From contig OZ244136.1 of the NCBI GenBank assembly GCA_965215975.1, positions 1,358,418 through 1,422,417 on the forward strand: DNA of 64,000 nt. Direction: 5' to 3'. Both the position numbers and the translations under genes were made by a program. The stretch's first letter is position 1. Each line of letters begins with the position of its first letter. Shown in pieces: positions 6,379 through 14,688 of the stretch. The stretch comes from Dehalococcoidia bacterium. GTDB taxonomy: Bacteria > Chloroflexota > Dehalococcoidia > Lucifugimonadales > UBA3495. The notes beneath the pieces are model-generated. The model had not been told where the DNA came from. It saw only the letters and a program-made list of their open reading frames with translations, and made no database searches.

Positions 6379-7175
6379 CTCAAGACCCTCGGCATAGCAG
6401 CGTACCCGGAAACGCCCCACCTGGAGAAAGCAGCGGTTATGCCGAAGGTGCAGACAATGGCTCTTTCATCTTTGAAGGAACCACCGGCTTACTGGTAGAA
6501 ACTGCCCCCGAGGCTGTTATCCACCTTCGATTGGCGGTACGCTCCGGGGCGCCTTGGACGCGCTCCCTGCTGGAGGCCGTTGGGCTTTGGACTGCTCCCC
6601 AGGAGGTTTACCAGGACCGTACCTACCGCTACCTGGTTGCCGGTGAAGCCCTTGACTGGCTAACCCTGGCGGAACGTCTCTGCCCTGAAATTGAAGACTT
6701 TATCCCTCCCGTCGACCTGGAGCGACTATTGTTTGAGGGGGGCCTTCCGGAAGACGTTACCCCCGAGGAATTCAAAAACTGGATGGGTGGCAACAAGCAC
6801 CGGGCCTACCTCAATTACTGGTACGGCGTGGTGGTGGAGGAAGCCCTGCAGCAGGCGGTGGAGGACGATGTGCGCAAGCGGGAGAAGGCCCGTTGCTACC
6901 CCGACCACGAGGACATGGTGGAGGAGGCCTTTACTCACCTCTACGCCAAGCCCCGCGCCCAACTGTTGAAGGAATTTCGCAAAGAGGCGAAAATTGCCAG
7001 TCACGAACCCCTGTCCCTGGCCGACTGCAAGGAATTCACCTACTGGCTCTCCAAGCTCCGATTCAACCTCTGGGACCCCGCACGGGTCGCCAGCGACACC
7101 CGCAAGGGCATGCGCTACCTGAACCACCTGGAACAGGTCCCCGGGCCATTATTGGCCGAGGAAGTGGGGGTTTAG
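6375..7175 (+). CDS. Hypothetical protein, translationally coupled to polX
   Basis: The ATG at 6375 overlaps the polX TGA (ATGA at 6375-6378). The track ORF start at 6216 would overlap polX by 160 nt. No family recognised. Confidence 0.55.
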   Translation: MTQDPRHSSVPGNAPPGESSGYAEGADNGSFIFEGTTGLLVETAPEAVIHLRLAVRSGAPWTRSLLEAVGLWTAPQEVYQDRTYRYLVAGEALDWLTLAERLCPEIEDFIPPVDLERLLFEGGLPEDVTPEEFKNWMGGNKHRAYLNYWYGVVVEEALQQAVEDDVRKREKARCYPDHEDMVEEAFTHLYAKPRAQLLKEFRKEAKIASHEPLSLADCKEFTYWLSKLRFNLWDPARVASDTRKGMRYLNHLEQVPGPLLAEEVGV

Positions 7176-7419
7176 GCGGGTCTTAGTGTGGTTCGGGATT
7201 CCGACCTTGTCATTCGGTATTCCTCAAGAGTACGACTACACCAGACTTGGCTGCCCAAGGGACAGGCAGGTTGGCGGGCGCCATTCCTCAGGAGTAAAAC
7301 CGCCTGGTTCAGTCTTCCAGGCACGGTCACGGCGACGGTCAATCACCTTTTATGCTCCCTTGCCAGTCCCTCGACGGTAGAGGTTCCTGATATTCCCACC
7401 ATCTCTCTCCCCCAACGTA

Positions 7420-7448
7420 TTGAAAACCCTGCCCTTCCCGTCTAAAAT
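7420..7448 (+). promoter_or_regulatory. Candidate sigma70-type promoter for rpsA
   Basis: TTGAAA (7420-7425), 17-nt spacer, TAAAAT (7443-7448), about 100 nt upstream of the rpsA start. Confidence 0.45.
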
Positions 7449-7551
7449 CTGCTGGGCCCAGTTGGATTTAGATCGGAAAAATTTAACGAACGGGGTGACC
7501 CTGGGTTAAGCGCAAAGTCCCCTTCCAACTGCGGCAGGAGTAAACCCCAGA

Positions 7552-8666: not shown

Positions 8667-9449
8667 ATGGTAGCCGAGGACGCGGAACAGACTCCCGAAG
8701 CACAACCTGCCGAAAACGGTGAGGGTTCGACTCAGGACGCGGAAAACCAGCCAGCCCCCCAGGAACTGGGTCGGGTGGAAAGACCTCCGGCTGATCAGTT
8801 CCGGGGCAAGCGCCGCCTGTTGTTGGTGCCCTTAATGTTCGCCCCTCCGGCGGACCCGGAAGGGGAAGAGTCCGAGGGCCAGGCCATCTACCAAAGGTAC
8901 TCGGAACAGGTCCGTACCCAGATTGACGCGCTCGCCGCCGGTTTGGGTGGACTGCACCGCATCTACCACGAAAGCCTGGTGGAAGGCGGTGAGGAGGGGC
9001 TGTCCTACCTGCAAATGGCCGACCGCCAAGCCCACGCGATGATCCAGCTACAGTGCCAGGCCGGGGCCACCCTGGAGGCCACCGAGAGCATCGACCTGTT
9101 GCTGGAAACCATGGACTTGCAACGCTGCCTTATGATCCCCCTTGCCAGCGAAGTGGTTGCGACCCAATTGCAGGAATGGCTGGCCAACAGCACCCACAAC
9201 CGCTACGAGCACATCGCTCAGCAAATCGACCAGACCCTCCAGCCCGACGAAACGGGCCTGCTGCTAATCAACGAACGCCACCAGGTCCAGTTCCCCACCG
9301 ACATAGAGGTCTTCTACATAGCCCCGCCGGCCCTGGACGAATACCGCCGCTGGGTCCAGAACTGGGCCGCGAGGCAGCAAAGGGCCGCGGAAGAGGGGAT
9401 GGCGCAAGGGGAGGGGGCTGATGAGCATGGGTCGGAGGAAAGCGGCTAG
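8667..9449 (+). CDS. Hypothetical acidic protein
   Basis: Coding-like ORF 5 nt after rpsA with high-GC codon usage like its neighbours. No family recognised. Confidence 0.5.
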   Translation: MVAEDAEQTPEAQPAENGEGSTQDAENQPAPQELGRVERPPADQFRGKRRLLLVPLMFAPPADPEGEESEGQAIYQRYSEQVRTQIDALAAGLGGLHRIYHESLVEGGEEGLSYLQMADRQAHAMIQLQCQAGATLEATESIDLLLETMDLQRCLMIPLASEVVATQLQEWLANSTHNRYEHIAQQIDQTLQPDETGLLLINERHQVQFPTDIEVFYIAPPALDEYRRWVQNWAARQQRAAEEGMAQGEGADEHGSEESG

Positions 9450-10072
9450 AGGTTTCTGAGGAACTGGGTCAAGTCGGCGAATGCTGGGCGGTTCCAGGGA
9501 ATGTATCCACGTTGAGCAGCTTCTCCTAACCGCAATTCCGGGTCTTGCCGCGACGCCAAAAAAGCATGGATGCGGGCTTTGTCACCGTCCTTGGGGCCAC
9601 TCCCTGTCCTGTCTTTGACACACTGCAGGAATTCTTCAACACAGGACATGGCCGGTTCGTCGACCAGGGCGGAAAGGCACAACTTCTCTAGGGCGCCGCT
9701 GCTGGCATTGTCGGGCATTATGAAGACGGAAATTTTGGGAGGTCCATCCTCAGGAGTCATAGACCGACTCGGCACAGGCAGTCCAGAGTTCCGTAAGTTG
9801 TTCTGGACGCTTTGCATGGCAGAACGGGCACTTTCGTCAGCGTCCCTTACTATGCCAATGGATTGGACTTGTGGAAAGTCAACGAGGCCTGTTAAGGCCA
9901 GCAGGTAACTGCGCAGATTGTCCTTTCCTTCGTAATCCCTGACCTGTATGTCACCAGCTTGGAGTCGTCTTAAAAAGGCGCTGAAGAAAAGTACCTCCTC
10001 TCGTCCTTCAACAAGTAATTGCCTGCTGCTCTGGACGGTAGGCATTTCCCGTGATTGGCCCCACTGCACCAT
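9446..10072 (-). CDS. Small Toprim-like protein (DUF3226/DUF4276-like), partner of the upstream ATPase
   Basis: LLVEGREE near the N-terminus (Toprim-type conserved Glu) and GIVRDADES (DxD-like acidic cluster). The start ATG shares one base with the ATPase TAA (TAATG at 10070-10074). Confidence 0.6.
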   Translation of the reverse strand: MVQWGQSREMPTVQSSRQLLVEGREEVLFFSAFLRRLQAGDIQVRDYEGKDNLRSYLLALTGLVDFPQVQSIGIVRDADESARSAMQSVQNNLRNSGLPVPSRSMTPEDGPPKISVFIMPDNASSGALEKLCLSALVDEPAMSCVEEFLQCVKDRTGSGPKDGDKARIHAFLASRQDPELRLGEAAQRGYIPWNRPAFADLTQFLRNL

Positions 10073-11172
10073 TAGATTACGTCCATATTGAACTTGTACG
10101 CGGCCCCAATACGTTCCTTGTCAAACTTCACCGACCTGTACTTGCCTTCCCCGTTTCGCTCAATGCGGAACAGCCGCAGTTCATCCTCTTCTTCTGATTC
10201 AAAGGCCCGGTGCGCCGCCCCAATGCACTCGTAGCTGTGGGTAGTGGCAAACAACTGCACGTCATAGCTGCGGGCAAATATGCCGACGGCCTTCCAAACT
10301 CTTTCCATTACCGAGTGGTGGATGCCGTTTTCTATCTCGTCCACCAGCGTCATCCCGCCTGGGCAGGTGGCTATGGCCAATGACAATGAAAGTATCCGAG
10401 ACATGCCATCGCCCAGAAGTTGAATAGGGATTAGTCTTCCCATCCCAACATCGGCATAGATGCTTGGAGCTTGTCTGGCGGAAATTACCGCCAGCCTGGA
10501 CAGTTGCGGTTCAATGCTTTGCAAGATTTCCAGAACGCCTTCTTGTTGACCATTGATTTCCAACTGACTGTACCGCGCAGCGTCCTCAGAGCTACTCATG
10601 GTATTTCTGGCGGCCAGAAAAATGCTGTTTTCGTGATGGGGGCGAAGTTGCTGAGTCTTCTCCATTCCAAGGGCAGATACCCCCGGTCCGACGACACGTT
10701 CGACTAGCCAGCCGCTAGAAGCCAATTGCTCTCCTGAATCGTGAAGGTATTCAAATGCTAACTGATTGCTATATTGGCCAACCACCGAAGAACTTTGTCG
10801 CAAGCCAAGTTGTTCCTGACCAGTAGCGGGCAAGGGAACTTGAAACGTTGGCCTGTCTTTAAGAGTAATCTTTAGCCTGCGCTCGCTAGACCCCCAATTT
10901 CCCTTTGAAGACAGTTCTATCACTGAGGAACGGTCAAACCCTCGGAACAAATCTCCCATGAAAGTGTCTATGTCGCCTGTATCAATGCCTCTGAATGCTC
11001 CCACACGAGCACATAACTCAGGGTTCACTGCCCCGTGGTGTACCCACAACGCCTCCAGCAGCGCCGTCTTTCCCACGTTGTTTTTGCCGGCAATCAGGTT
11101 TATTCGGCCAATGCCTTCCACGGTCAACTCGTCAAAGCACCGGAAGTTCTTGATGCTGAAGCTGCGGTACAT
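10072..11172 (-). CDS. ABC-type AAA ATPase (AAA_21/AAA_15-like, OLD/PARIS AriA-like)
   Basis: MYRSFSIKNFRCFDEL N-terminus, Walker A GKNNVGKT, signature-like LGDGMSRIL, Walker B MTLVDEIENGIH, H-loop TTHS. RBS AGGAGCGGAG upstream. Confidence 0.8.
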   Translation of the reverse strand: MYRSFSIKNFRCFDELTVEGIGRINLIAGKNNVGKTALLEALWVHHGAVNPELCARVGAFRGIDTGDIDTFMGDLFRGFDRSSVIELSSKGNWGSSERRLKITLKDRPTFQVPLPATGQEQLGLRQSSSVVGQYSNQLAFEYLHDSGEQLASSGWLVERVVGPGVSALGMEKTQQLRPHHENSIFLAARNTMSSSEDAARYSQLEINGQQEGVLEILQSIEPQLSRLAVISARQAPSIYADVGMGRLIPIQLLGDGMSRILSLSLAIATCPGGMTLVDEIENGIHHSVMERVWKAVGIFARSYDVQLFATTHSYECIGAAHRAFESEEEDELRLFRIERNGEGKYRSVKFDKERIGAAYKFNMDVI

Positions 11173-11382
11173 AATCTCCGCTCCTAACCCCTTGGCCAGC
11201 TATTGTGGTTGATTCCTGGAGCGCCTGAATTTCTGACCATAGTTTAACATTGTGGACATTTCCCCCAATAGACGCCCCCCCGCCGCAATGGTATATTTTC
11301 GTTACCACATTACGAATCAGGGCCAAGCCGTAACGGATTCAATTAACCCCATTTGCAATCAGCTGTACCAGGGAGAGTTTTT

Positions 11383-14088
11383 ATGACCTCCAGCGCCCCC
11401 GCCGACATACCCCGGGCCTATGACCCTGCCTCCGTGGAGCAGCGTACCTACCAGCAGTGGCTCGACAACGGCTACTTTACACCTGAAATACGCCCGGGCC
11501 GCCAGCCCTTTGTCATCATCATGCCGCCCCCCAACGTCACCGGCGAACTGCACCTGGGCCACGCCCTCACCGCTTCCATCGAGGACGCCCTGACCCGCTG
11601 GCGCCGGATGTGCGGCTACGATACCCTGTGGCTCCCCGGAAAGGACCACGCCGGCATTGCAACCCAGTGGGTAGTTGAGCGACTGCTGGCGGAGGAGGGC
11701 ACCAACCGCCACGAACTGGGCCGCGAGAAATTTCAGGAACGGGTATGGGAGTGGGTCGCCCGCTACGGCAACACCATCGACGAGCAGCACAAGCGCCTGG
11801 GCACCTCCTGCGACTGGTCCCGCCTCCGTTTCACCCTGGACCCCGGTCCTGCCAAAGCGGTGCGCACCACCTTTGTCAACCTGTACAAAAAGGGCCTGAT
11901 CTACCGCCACGAGCGCATCATTAACTGGTGCCCCCGCTGCGCCACCGCCCTGTCCGACCTGGAAGTGGAATACCAGGAACAGGACGGCAAGCTTTACTAC
12001 ATCCGCTACCCCCTGGCTGACGGCAGCGGCCACATTACCGTCGCCACCACCCGCCCCGAGTCCATGCTGGGTGATACCGGCGTGGCGGTGCACCCCGAGG
12101 ACCCCCGCTACGCCGCCCACGTCGGCCAGCAGGCCATGCTGCCTATCATGGACCGGTCCATCCCCATCGTTGGCGACGAGGCAATTGAGCAGGAGTTCGG
12201 CACCGGCGCCCTGAAGGTAACCCCCGGCCACGATGTAACCGACTTCGAGATCGGCGAGCGCCACGGGCTGGAAATCATCAACGTCATCGGCTTTGACGGC
12301 AACATGACTGACCTGGCCGGCAAGTACGAGGGCATGGAGCGGTTCGACACCCGCCGCGCCGTGGCCGAGGAACTGGACGGCCTGGGCCTTCTGGAAAAGG
12401 TGGAGGACTACCGCCACTCGGTGGGCCATTGCCAGCGCTGCGACTCGGTGGTCGAACCCCTGATCAGCCTGCAGTGGTTCCTGAATGTGGGCAGCCACCG
12501 GGACCCCGACAGCATCGCCGGCCGCGCCCACGCCGCCGTGGCAAACGGCGACATCAGCATCGTCCCCGACCGCTTCGGGCGGGTCTACCTCAACTGGCTG
12601 GAGAACATCCGCGACTGGTGCATCAGCCGGCAGCTTTGGTGGGGCCACCGCATACCCGTCTGGTACTGCGACGAATGCAACGAAATCATCGCTTCGGTGG
12701 ACGACCCCAACGCCTGCCCCACCTGCAACTCCGAGGGACTGCGACAGGATGAGGACGTGCTGGACACCTGGTTCAGTTCCGGCCTCTGGCCCCATTCCAC
12801 CCTGGGCTGGCCCGACAATACCGAGGACTTTAACTACTTCTATCCCACGGCCGTCATGGAAACGGGGTACGACATCCTCTTCTTCTGGGTGGCCCGCATG
12901 ATCATGATGGGCATCGAGAATACCGGAGATATTCCCTTCCGCACCGTGTACCTCCACGGCCTGATTCGCGACGCCAACGGCGACAAGATGAGCAAGACCC
13001 GGGGCAATACCATGGACCCCCTGGAACTCATCGACCGCTACGGCACCGACGCCCTCCGCTTTGCCCTGTCCACCGGCACCGCCCCGGGCAACGACCTGCG
13101 CATCACCGAAGGCAAGCTGGAGGCGGCCCGCAACTTCGCCAACAAAGTGTGGAACGCCGCGCGCTTCGTCATCACCTCTTTTGAAGAACAGTCGCAGGGA
13201 CAGGACGACCTGGCCGGCTGGCGCGAACTGCCCAACCTGGAGCACCGGGAAGACCGCTGGATAATCAGCCTGCTGGACCGCGTCACTGCCGACGTCAACA
13301 ACTCCCTGTCCACCTTTGAACTGGGCGAAGCCCAGCAAAAGCTCTACGATTTCATCTGGAATGATTTCTGCGACTGGTACATCGAGATGGCCAAGGTTCG
13401 CATGCGTTCCGGCGCTGGTCCCTCTCCCCGGCCAGTGCTGGCCCACGTCCTGGAGCGAACCCTGCGCCTGCTGCATCCCTTCATGCCCTTCATCACCGAG
13501 GAAATCTGGCGGAACCTTACCTCCCGCCTGCCCGAAGAGGGTGTCTTGGCCTCCTCCATCATGATTGCCGACTACCCCGTGGCCGAGTCCCCTCGCCACG
13601 ACCGGCAGGCAGAGGAGGAAATCTCCCTGGTGATGCAGACCATCCGGGCCGTCCGCAACACCCGCGCCCAGTTGCGGATCCCCGCCAACCAGCGGCTGGA
13701 GGCCCAAGTGGAGGCCAACGGTCTCCGAGGGGCGATGGAAGAGGAGGCCGAGGTAATCCGCACCCTGTCTAGGGTGGAACCCCTCAGCATAACTGCTGGC
13801 GCTCCGGATGCCGCCGACCAGACCCGGGGCGTCACCCTGGTGGTCAATCCCCTGGTGGTCCGCCTGCCCCTGGAGGGTGTGGTGGATCTGGCCGCCGAGC
13901 AGGGCCGCCTGCAGGAAGAGTTGGCCAACTGTCAGCGGGAACTGGAGCGCAAAGAGAAGCTGGTCAACAACCCCAACTTCCGTGCCAAGGCCCGCCCCGA
14001 CGTGGTGGAAACCGAAGAAGACCGCCTCCGCAACCTCCAGGAACAACAACAGCGCCTGGGCGAAATTATTGCCCAGCTAGGGGTCTAA
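11383..14088 (+). CDS. valS: Valine--tRNA ligase
   Basis: Class I HIGH motif (GELHLGHAL), KMSKS motif (DKMSKTRGN), C-terminal coiled coil. The ATG at 11383 follows GGGAGAG; the TTG at 11353 is less likely. Confidence 0.95.
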   Translation: MTSSAPADIPRAYDPASVEQRTYQQWLDNGYFTPEIRPGRQPFVIIMPPPNVTGELHLGHALTASIEDALTRWRRMCGYDTLWLPGKDHAGIATQWVVERLLAEEGTNRHELGREKFQERVWEWVARYGNTIDEQHKRLGTSCDWSRLRFTLDPGPAKAVRTTFVNLYKKGLIYRHERIINWCPRCATALSDLEVEYQEQDGKLYYIRYPLADGSGHITVATTRPESMLGDTGVAVHPEDPRYAAHVGQQAMLPIMDRSIPIVGDEAIEQEFGTGALKVTPGHDVTDFEIGERHGLEIINVIGFDGNMTDLAGKYEGMERFDTRRAVAEELDGLGLLEKVEDYRHSVGHCQRCDSVVEPLISLQWFLNVGSHRDPDSIAGRAHAAVANGDISIVPDRFGRVYLNWLENIRDWCISRQLWWGHRIPVWYCDECNEIIASVDDPNACPTCNSEGLRQDEDVLDTWFSSGLWPHSTLGWPDNTEDFNYFYPTAVMETGYDILFFWVARMIMMGIENTGDIPFRTVYLHGLIRDANGDKMSKTRGNTMDPLELIDRYGTDALRFALSTGTAPGNDLRITEGKLEAARNFANKVWNAARFVITSFEEQSQGQDDLAGWRELPNLEHREDRWIISLLDRVTADVNNSLSTFELGEAQQKLYDFIWNDFCDWYIEMAKVRMRSGAGPSPRPVLAHVLERTLRLLHPFMPFITEEIWRNLTSRLPEEGVLASSIMIADYPVAESPRHDRQAEEEISLVMQTIRAVRNTRAQLRIPANQRLEAQVEANGLRGAMEEEAEVIRTLSRVEPLSITAGAPDAADQTRGVTLVVNPLVVRLPLEGVVDLAAEQGRLQEELANCQRELERKEKLVNNPNFRAKARPDVVETEEDRLRNLQEQQQRLGEIIAQLGV

Positions 14089-14274: not shown

Positions 14275-14688
14275 TTAGTAATATTCAGGATTCTCAACCC
14301 ATTCCTCTTCGTCCTCGTCTTCATCAATTTCCTCTCCTGCCGCCAGCTTGTCAGCCAGCCATGCCGCCGTAATGATTGCCTCGGGGTACTCTCCGTTATC
14401 CAGTAACTCGGTCACGATATCGCAATCGGCTACGTAGAGGGCTATGTCCATGTCCCCGGCATAGCGTTCGAGTGCAGCCTCGAAAGCCCACATACCGGCC
14501 AACCGGCGGAGCTCATCCTCCTTGCTCTTTGTCCCGGGGCAGACGGTGGGTTCGTCAACAAATGGCGAGTGCGGGGCATCGTACACGTTCCAATCCATGC
14601 CATACCTGGCTGTGACTTCGGCTGAATCCTTCCTGTAAGCATCCTTTTTGGCTTCTGAATTGTGCTTGCGGTCTTTCTTGTGTCCCAT
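14275..14688 (-). CDS. Hypothetical protein with basic N-terminus and strongly acidic C-terminus
   Basis: 137-aa ORF in a low-GC intergenic island (27/60 G+C in nt 14281-14340). Ends ...GEEIDEDEDEEEWVENPEYY. No family recognised. Confidence 0.4.
   Translation of the reverse strand: MGHKKDRKHNSEAKKDAYRKDSAEVTARYGMDWNVYDAPHSPFVDEPTVCPGTKSKEDELRRLAGMWAFEAALERYAGDMDIALYVADCDIVTELLDNGEYPEAIITAAWLADKLAAGEEIDEDEDEEEWVENPEYY

Follow-up and report, generated by a model that had tools for sequence, protein, structure and literature searches.

What is the two-gene module that stands alone on the minus strand between housekeeping genes of a Dehalococcoidia bacterium, and why do its alleles differ so strongly among relatives whose neighbouring genes are nearly the same? 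The module lies in a 64,000-nucleotide (nt) stretch of contig OZ244136.1, here called the window, and is composed of an ATPase gene of 366 amino acids (aa) (10072..11172, minus strand) followed by a small gene of 208 aa (9446..10072, minus strand). The ATPase is SMC/Rad50-head-like and of the AbiLi/PDC-M38A type, and the small protein is Toprim-like and belongs to Pfam DUF3226, or PDC-M38B. The ATPase stop codon (TAA) and the small-gene start codon (ATG) have one base in common in the sequence TAATG (10070..10074, minus strand), an overlap indicative of translational coupling. We consider it probable that this locus is a translationally coupled two-gene conflict module, i.e. a split OLD-type ABC ATPase and Toprim nuclease that serve as sensor and effector against phage. 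The family as such is already catalogued; what is new here is the allele-swap pattern at fixed junctions and not the type of system.

The module adjoins valS in all 11 sampled close relatives (the window, L007-L015 and L087), and on its other side the same two genes, encoding a 260-aa protein and an S1-domain protein, are present in eight of the 11. Across these relatives the ATPases are 45-82% and the DUF3226 proteins 48-93% identical, and ValS is 82-98% identical. Between L007 and L087, ValS (98%), the S1 protein (99%), AroE (98%) and the 260-aa protein (96%) are nearly the same, and the ATPases and DUF3226 proteins are 59% and 62% identical, respectively. In a sliding-window comparison of the two DNA sequences the flanks are 87-100% identical, mostly above 95%, and the intergenic region together with the first ~100 nt of the ATPase gene is 98-99% identical. 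ATPase codons ~30-280 are 42-74% identical, the segment from Walker B to the H-loop 99%, the ATPase tail and the entire DUF3226 gene 52-76%, and the next gene 99%. Since the intergenic region and the first ~100 nt of the coding sequence stay at 98-99%, the replaced block begins inside the ATPase gene. The finding of ~60% alleles between flanks that have changed by only 1-2% therefore calls for replacement by recombination, in at least two blocks, rather than divergence in place. At the far end of the module the convergent stop codons of the DUF3226 gene and the 260-aa gene overlap by 4 nt (CTAG, 9446..9449), and L087, with a DUF3226 allele that is 57-59% identical, has the same 4-nt overlap.

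Other pairs of relatives differ in one part of the module or the other. L013 and L014 (ValS 98%) have DUF3226 proteins that are 93% identical and ATPase inserts that are 11-60% identical per 20 residues; in L008, L009 and L012 the ATPase is 80-82% and DUF3226 just 62-64% identical. Divergence in the insert is uncorrelated with divergence in DUF3226. The insert is a hypervariable region of the ATPase comprising residues ~41-200 (10573..11052, minus strand), delimited by identity, column entropy and the AlphaFold (AF2) model, in which it is predicted to be beta-rich, with strands within residues ~85-186 and no coiled coil; the pLDDT (predicted local distance difference test) score drops below 50 at residues 113-133. 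In the valS-linked clade the mean pairwise ATPase identity is 0.28 for residues 91-200, as compared to 0.85 for residues 1-40 and 0.79 for residues 275-330, and column entropy peaks at residues 101-180. We propose that this insert is the trigger-sensing surface. The identities in L008, L009 and L012 also hinted that the ATPase C-terminal tail might co-vary with DUF3226 as a docking interface. That is not claimed here, because simple physical linkage explains the correlation, which is weak in the first clade (r 0.58, with 0.54 for the N-terminus) and absent in the second.

A second Chloroflexota clade, represented by ten genomes (L023, L024, L028, L034, L037-L040, L045 and L090, with the module at ~8900-10600), carries the module between hisB (IGPD) and a GT9 glycosyltransferase gene. 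The pattern is milder there, with IGPD 82-97%, the ATPase 52-83% and DUF3226 54-78% identical, and it includes incongruent pairs. Thus the module occupies a fixed housekeeping site in two Chloroflexota clades with mosaic, block-wise replacement of its alleles. The first-pass annotation, made from the sequence alone, had reasoned that occurrence at this exact position in all relatives, as a conserved core locus, would speak against a defence role. The constant position is indeed found (11 of 11), and the core-gene character is not, in view of the divergent alleles, the decay described below and the other genomic contexts. A separate observation concerns six loci from Poribacteria and unclassified metagenome-assembled genomes (MAGs; L016, L017, L088, L089, L091 and L092), in which the pair is directly upstream of an FGGY sugar kinase gene; this may be a third recurrent insertion site.

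Taken from the alignments, near-identical flanks, divergent alleles, sharp block boundaries, an insert that is the most variable part and recurrence of the pattern in a second clade together resemble the signature of an arms race. More tentatively, and with the balance of our judgement somewhat against it, the junction could be a resident "immune allele" site: a split-OLD system tied to a single housekeeping junction in two or more Chloroflexota lineages, the cassettes of which would be swapped between co-existing strains by homologous recombination via the conserved flanks and the Walker B core. One cassette would be the ATPase insert (the sensor) and the other the ATPase tail with the Toprim gene (the effector). 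If this is true, a population keeps a library of specificities at a single locus, in contrast to defence islands as commonly pictured, where entire systems come and go. A candidate defence system alone at a fixed core-genome junction is also not where defence-island searches would expect one. Near-identical genomes with differences confined to the ATPase insert, or else to the Toprim block, amount to a natural mutagenesis series, and point to the part that sets specificity.

The small protein matches DUF3226 (PF11536) over its full length, with an expect value (E) of 5.7e-37 and 128 bits, where the cut-off is 27; residues 17-208 align to profile positions 2-206 of 208, and 33 of 33 homologues match the same family. 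Two PDC-M38B models are also matched, PDLC04624 at 7.9e-17 (residues 13-193 on profile positions 10-202 of 220) and PDLC04623 at 4.3e-15. The AF2 model (pLDDT 93) displays a beta-alpha-beta-alpha-beta-alpha-beta order, the Toprim topology, with strands at residues 17-21, 42-46, 71-76 and 113-118 alternating with helices and a helical bundle thereafter. The five best matches of a Foldseek search against the PDB are C-terminal catalytic regions of class 2 OLD proteins (6NJX, 6NJW, 6NJV, 6NK8), with probability 0.99-1.0, template modelling (TM) scores of 0.40-0.49 and E from 3.6e-4 to 6.6e-3. The Pfam OLD-like_TOPRIM model scores 17.7 bits (E 0.0053), below its cut-off of 23.2, and the same sub-threshold match is found in 31 of the 33 homologues. 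A profile search of the PDB gave one match, 2P62 (PH0156; E 2e-4). The plain sequence search against the PDB gave noise only (IpaH, E >0.3), the search of a viral structure library nothing significant, PHROGs no match and NCBIfam nothing above cut-offs. The Toprim-like nature of the small protein, predicted in the first-pass annotation from two acidic motifs, is thus borne out by the modelled topology and by OLD C-terminal regions as the best PDB fold matches, and the predicted conservation of the Glu and DxD residues is seen in the alignment of the 33 homologues.

Within that alignment the Toprim Glu motif LLVEGREE (starting at residue 19; 9995..10018, minus strand) has E22 and G23 invariant. 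E22 follows directly after the strand at residues 17-21, an acidic residue is usual at the +3/+4 position, and the counterparts of the motif are FVEGDDD in a Klebsiella plasmid homologue and IIVEGKTDE in PDB 2P62. The DxD motif IVRDADES (starting at residue 74; 9830..9853, minus strand) follows the strand at residues 71-76, with D77 invariant and D79 present in at least 90% of the homologues (ILDADT in Klebsiella). Also invariant are E129 in GALEKLCL (9674..9697, minus strand; GAIEDL in Klebsiella), a proposed metal-B ligand at the start of helix 128-135 where the helical part begins, and K165 in DKARIH (9566..9583, minus strand; KKAKV in Klebsiella), the proposed equivalent of the OLD catalytic lysine. 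E22, the DxD motif, E129 and K165 are all kept in the Klebsiella homologue at 25% identity. Bp OLD's active site is formed by E400, E404, D455, D457, T506/E508 and K562 (PMC6755086). The spacing from E22 to D77 is 55 residues, as is that from E400 to D455; D77 to E129 is 52 versus 53 for D455 to E508, and the 208-aa protein is close in size to the Bp OLD catalytic region of 205 aa (residues 390-594). By motif and spacing, E22, D77xD79, E129 and K165 are likely to be the OLD-type two-metal residues, and this active-site hypothesis at the level of residues is offered for the family. Three cysteines (C132, C144, C151) are invariant in the 33 Chloroflexota-type homologues and absent from the Klebsiella homologue; for the latter reason they were rejected as a catalytic or metal site of the family, and they may be a structural or metal site peculiar to one clade.

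The ATPase matches Pfam AAA_21 (5.3e-20) and AAA_15 (5.3e-18). Its best PADLOC matches are PDC-M38A PDLC04611 (7.5e-57) and AbiLi PDLC02336 (6.4e-53), the latter aligned end to end (residues 1-364 on profile positions 1-338 of 340), and four more PDC-M38A models match at 2.3e-39 to 7.8e-27. The AF2 model (pLDDT 81) has an SMC/Rad50-head-like ABC fold, and the best Foldseek matches are SMC heads, Rad50 heads and PtuA (E ~1e-13), PtuA being the nearest defence relative. Each of the nucleotide-binding motifs has residues that are invariant among 40 homologues: G29, N31, G34 and K35 in the Walker A motif (P-loop) GKNNVGKT (residues 29-36; 11065..11088); G254 and G256 in the ABC signature-like LGDGMSRIL (residues 253-261; 10390..10416); D278, E279, E281, N282 and G283 in the Walker B/D-loop motif LVDEIENGIH (residues 276-285; 10318..10347); and T310, T311, H312 and S313 in the H-loop TTHS (residues 310-313; 10234..10245), all on the minus strand. 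Both open reading frames (ORFs), all of the motifs quoted in the first-pass annotation, the TAATG overlap, the G+C (GC) counts and the strand layout were reproduced. The two ORFs are not chance frames because the profile matches are strong (AAA_21 5e-20, AAA_15 5e-18, DUF3226 5.7e-37).

The two genes travel together. In a genome scan that covered 80 loci from about ten phyla, an ATPase homologue was located upstream of DUF3226 in 77 of the 80 genomes, adjoining it in nearly all, and the remaining three consist of two contig ends and one decayed remnant; the synteny anticipated in the first-pass annotation is thus found elsewhere. The hosts include Dehalococcoidia, other Chloroflexota, Latescibacterota, Planctomycetota, Poribacteria, Cyanobacteria, Nitrospirae, Verrucomicrobia, Binatia and others, with a patchy distribution across phyla. 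Of 89 locus rows, 60 show the 1-nt overlap and 84 have either an overlap of 1-4 nt or a gap of at most 2 nt. Gaps of ~1.1 kb in L072 (7812-10627) and 185 nt in L079 (8688-10600) may be insertions or decay within the operon. In 83 of 85 loci the module is poorer in GC than its flanks (mean difference 8.2 points), irrespective of host GC. At 50% identity and E up to 1e-3, the DUF3226 family falls into 6,220 clusters; among the best 150 of these 6,220 representatives, 149 are short stand-alone proteins (179-273 aa) and none is long enough for fusion to an ATPase. The exception among the 150 is P0241, a protein of 443 aa with two DUF3226 stretches, which could be a tandem duplication or a fusion.

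The family is also found on plasmids. Matches were obtained in 141 plasmid records, mostly ColE1-type plasmids of Klebsiella of ~4.2 kb typed ColRNAI; the ~4.2-kb plasmids account for 134 Klebsiella records and a few from E. coli, Salmonella, Raoultella and Plesiomonas. Apart from the pair, which is their principal annotated cargo, these plasmids have just rop and a helix-turn-helix gene annotated. In the Klebsiella plasmid NZ_CP024435.1 (L095, 437-2184) the pair has the same 1-nt overlap geometry. Homology to the window pair is supported by an hhalign probability of 99.4% for DUF3226 and by 27% identity over the full length of the ATPase, and the plasmid pair matches PDC-M38A, PDC-M38B and AbiLi. 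The homologue on small Klebsiella and E. coli plasmids is a tractable one, for which ordinary coliphages can be used, and it makes the family testable.

Among the described systems, both window proteins match the profiles of PDC-M38, a candidate system of PADLOC-DB v2, over most of their length, and their genes are adjacent, co-oriented and coupled; judged by profile matches and adjacency, the pair is a member of PDC-M38. PDC candidates were nominated computationally by "guilt by embedding" in known defence systems (PMC12881386; bioRxiv 10.1101/2024.01.29.577857). PDC-M38 was discovered on this basis, whereas the window pair and the sampled loci stand alone amid housekeeping or metabolic genes; embedding is a property of the discovery set and no rule of membership. 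AbiL is a two-gene abortive-infection system of Lactococcus that combines an ABC ATPase with a Toprim/OLD-like nuclease, in which AbiLi is ~450 aa (PMC13064643). The window ATPase, at 366 aa, matches the AbiLi profile end to end, but the partners belong to different Toprim families, RloB-like AbiLii in AbiL and DUF3226 in the window. Full AbiL membership was rejected since AbiLii (PDLC02338) gives only E 0.024 and 13 bits and Pfam shows no RloB match. With both proteins matching PDC-M38 and the ATPase matching AbiLi over its full length, the "undescribed variant" of the first-pass annotation was an overstatement.

OLD nucleases (P2 Old and TsOLD in class 1; GajA, BpOLD and XccOLD in class 2) contain the same two modules in a similar total size (366 + 208 = 574 aa here). 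Their catalytic C-terminal regions are the best PDB fold matches of DUF3226 and share with it the Glu and DxD, and the proposed second Glu and Lys fit by position, with near-identical spacing from the Glu through the DxD to the second Glu. They are single polypeptides, however, while in the window a stop codon separates two ORFs, and the helical dimerisation domain of OLD (PMC10568477) contrasts with the predicted beta-rich insert of the window ATPase. No helicase partner (GajB) and no retron were found near the window pair. The pair, split and below the Pfam threshold, is therefore no member of the OLD family proper and appears to share its catalytic design. The description as a split OLD-like module holds: an ABC ATPase accompanied by a separate protein of the size of a whole OLD catalytic region.

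PARIS, also classed as "class 4 OLD", likewise consists of split ABC ATPase and Toprim nuclease genes and is the best mechanistic template, but the suggestion that the pair is PARIS-like fails as family membership. The window protein has no AriB/DUF4435 match (DUF4435 is touched by just two of the 33 homologues, with E 0.023 or worse), and the ATPase insert is beta-rich with no coiled coil predicted. The PADLOC "AriA" matches are generic, being 304 and 373 positions long, the lengths of the AAA_21 and AAA_15 models, and neither AriA nor AriB is among the top 50 fold matches of either model. AriA is a 53-55 kDa protein with a coiled coil and AriB is 35 kDa (PMC11464382), versus ~41 and ~23 kDa for the window proteins. 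The Hma-embedded HEC-01 (ABC ATPase and Toprim) and HEC-04 (fused) have the same domain pairing as the window pair in a different genomic context; the HEC-01A profile matches the window ATPase weakly (9.9e-10) and HEC-01B is not matched. The Toprim metal site of the HEC proteins was aligned to Bp OLD 6NK8, HEC-04 defence requires Walker A and the E/D/D site (bioRxiv 10.1101/2024.01.29.577857), and HEC-01 was later found to protect E. coli (PMC12881386). PDB 2P62 (PH0156 of Pyrococcus horikoshii) shares VEG and RDxDE motifs with the DUF3226 protein and is a distant relative with a solved structure; it is an uncharacterised structural-genomics entry of 241 aa from an archaeon and lies outside the top 50 Foldseek matches of the model.

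The same two domains make up the defence systems AbiL, PARIS, HEC-01/04 and OLD/Gabija (PMC13064643; PMC11464382; bioRxiv 10.1101/2024.01.29.577857). In PARIS, AriA holds AriB inactive and releases it upon sensing a phage protein, and the trigger-facing parts of AriA are poorly conserved (PMC11464382; PMC10802264). Because of the analogy with PARIS (AriA/AriB) and with HEC-04 (Walker A plus E/D/D), we propose a sensor/effector mechanism in which the ATPase would form ATP-dependent head-to-head dimers or larger assemblies and bind its Toprim partner. The hypervariable beta-rich insert (residues ~41-200) would recognise an infection-derived trigger, upon which ATP binding or hydrolysis would release or activate the partner. 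The latter, as a two-metal nuclease (E22, D77xD79, E129, K165), would cleave nucleic acid and halt either the replication of the phage or the infected cell; it might attack DNA, like OLD and GajA, or tRNA, like AriB. By the same analogy we infer the physical complex, the sensing of a trigger by the insert, the nuclease activity with its target and the anti-phage or abortive-infection function. ABC-ATPase and Toprim pairs are a recurring design of bacterial immunity, and the DUF3226/PDC-M38 branch of it is large yet absent from the searchable literature.

The module is dispensable, as seen from its decay in two lineages. In L082 (ValS 92% identical) only the C-terminal 78 codons of DUF3226 are left beside valS (10028-10264), the ATPase is gone, and on the other side an 867-aa ORF stands where the genes for the 260-aa and S1 proteins would be. 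In L096 the DUF3226 gene (6895-7511, which corresponds to 9446-10072 of the window) has lost 10 bp in a clean deletion that shifts its reading frame, and the ATPase gene is intact. Apart from this deletion the aligned gene is 100% identical, on a contig of 1.03 Mb with 56x coverage, and the putative nuclease may have been lost naturally here. In L001 (8900-10001) and L099 (7521-8622) two ORFs of 193 and 175 aa stand in place of one ATPase ORF, probably owing to a sequencing or read error, the contig being a long-read one of 5x coverage. A search for empty sites through the 260-aa neighbour in metagenome contigs gave two distant matches (57%), on short contigs that reach neither valS nor the module.

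Several observations weigh against a defence module. No enrichment of known defence genes was seen among 150 flanking ORFs from ~40 loci, a weak negative given crude gene calls and no matched control. The commonest flanking Pfam families were metabolic or housekeeping (GT9, ureidoglycolate lyase, cytochrome P460, IGPD, CoA transferase, PrmA, FGGY), and the handful of flanking ORFs with PADLOC matches hit mostly generic protease or kinase models. A fixed, clade-wide position beside housekeeping genes is unusual for a mobile defence system, and a repeat search around the module detected neither flanking direct repeats nor att-like sites as marks of mobility. There was no homologue in 50,697 phage records, and the searchable literature contains no paper naming DUF3226 or PDC-M38 and no experiment for either. 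The fold match to OLD is only moderate by its TM scores, and the pairing of E129 with Bp OLD E508 and of K165 with K562 is deduced from position and spacing, not from superposition.

The fixed position is at the same time what a housekeeping role in DNA repair or recombination, in the manner of RecF with RecR or SbcCD/Rad50-Mre11, would explain. The SMC and Rad50 heads as nearest folds, the weak matches of the ATPase N-terminus to recF, Rad50 and recN models, the same place in 11 related genomes with a second fixed site in another clade, and housekeeping neighbours (the rpsA-like gene, valS, aroE) would all fit such a role. We nevertheless hold it to be very improbable. No NCBIfam model reaches its cut-off for the ATPase and the repair models fall far short (recF 34.5 bits versus 172), and no housekeeping gene would present ~60% alleles between 98-99% flanks. 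The GC at third codon positions (GC3) is 0.16-0.26 below that of the neighbours, L082 and L096 retain only a decayed or frameshifted version, and the pair is carried on small plasmids and scattered patchily across phyla. Low GC, atypical codon usage and decay in L082, L096 and possibly L001/L099 might instead suggest a dying remnant of a past insertion, now without function; this is the least credible of the explanations, since most independent metagenome contigs of the species carry both ORFs intact and at 100% identity, the catalytic residues of both proteins are invariant across dozens of homologues, in which purifying selection is seen, and the coupled stop/start geometry is kept across phyla.

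An unlikely but more serious candidate is a selfish addiction module of the toxin-antitoxin kind, with the Toprim nuclease as toxin restrained by the ATPase, in which loss of the pair would kill the cell or plasmid-free segregants and phage defence would be incidental. PARIS offers a precedent, as it shows the behaviour of a toxin-antitoxin pair (PMC10802264; PMC13064643). Addiction would account for small Klebsiella plasmids, found in over 130 isolates, whose annotated cargo is mainly this pair, and for a chromosomal site fixed across a clade, and the sole well-supported natural knockout (L096, 56x) strikes the putative toxin and spares the ATPase. The carrier plasmids, however, are typed ColRNAI, and such plasmids are high-copy replicons with little need for post-segregational killing. 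The whole module was deleted in L082 with no obvious replacement, and an insert that is hypervariable and swapped independently of the nuclease fits selection by changing external triggers better than addiction of the simple kind. Addiction and defence are in any case not mutually exclusive.

The module sits between plus-strand neighbours, the S1-domain gene and the 260-aa gene on one side and valS on the other, the start of valS being most likely the ATG at 11383-11385 (901 aa) rather than the TTG at 11353. A recount gave 29/60 G+C at 10081-10140 and 42/60 at 11521-11580. The low GC spans the whole module (0.526, with flanks of 0.595 and 0.631), and its GC3 is 0.58 versus 0.74-0.84 in the neighbours; in base composition the module is foreign-looking. 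An identical module at the same site is found in independent metagenome contigs of the window organism (Dehalococcoidia-type Chloroflexota). The intergenic region (11173..11382) from which the ATPase gene and valS diverge, up to the valS ATG, presumably contains promoters for both directions. It has one sigma-70-like site (11269-11297, plus strand), a count not above chance; around the module, promoter and terminator scans gave counts no higher than in shuffled sequence and an Rfam scan found no RNA family.

Some minor observations are recorded here. In L091 (2640-4836) a second AAA_15/AAA_21 ATPase gene, followed by a D12-class methyltransferase gene, is located 3-5 kb upstream of the module. 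Several MAG names among L007-L086 (Poribacteria, Ca. Paraprochloron terpiosi, Caldilineaceae, Latescibacterota) are names of marine-sponge symbionts, and the family may be enriched in that habitat. The 896-aa ORF antisense to valS (11359-14049, minus strand) is the usual coding artefact of high-GC DNA and no gene. Between valS and aroE the window carries a very acidic ORF of 137 aa (14275-14688, minus strand; GC 0.54, GC3 0.62) with no Pfam match, which is present in those identical-module contigs that reach this position and absent from the relatives L007-L015; it looks like a second strain-specific insert beside the same housekeeping block.

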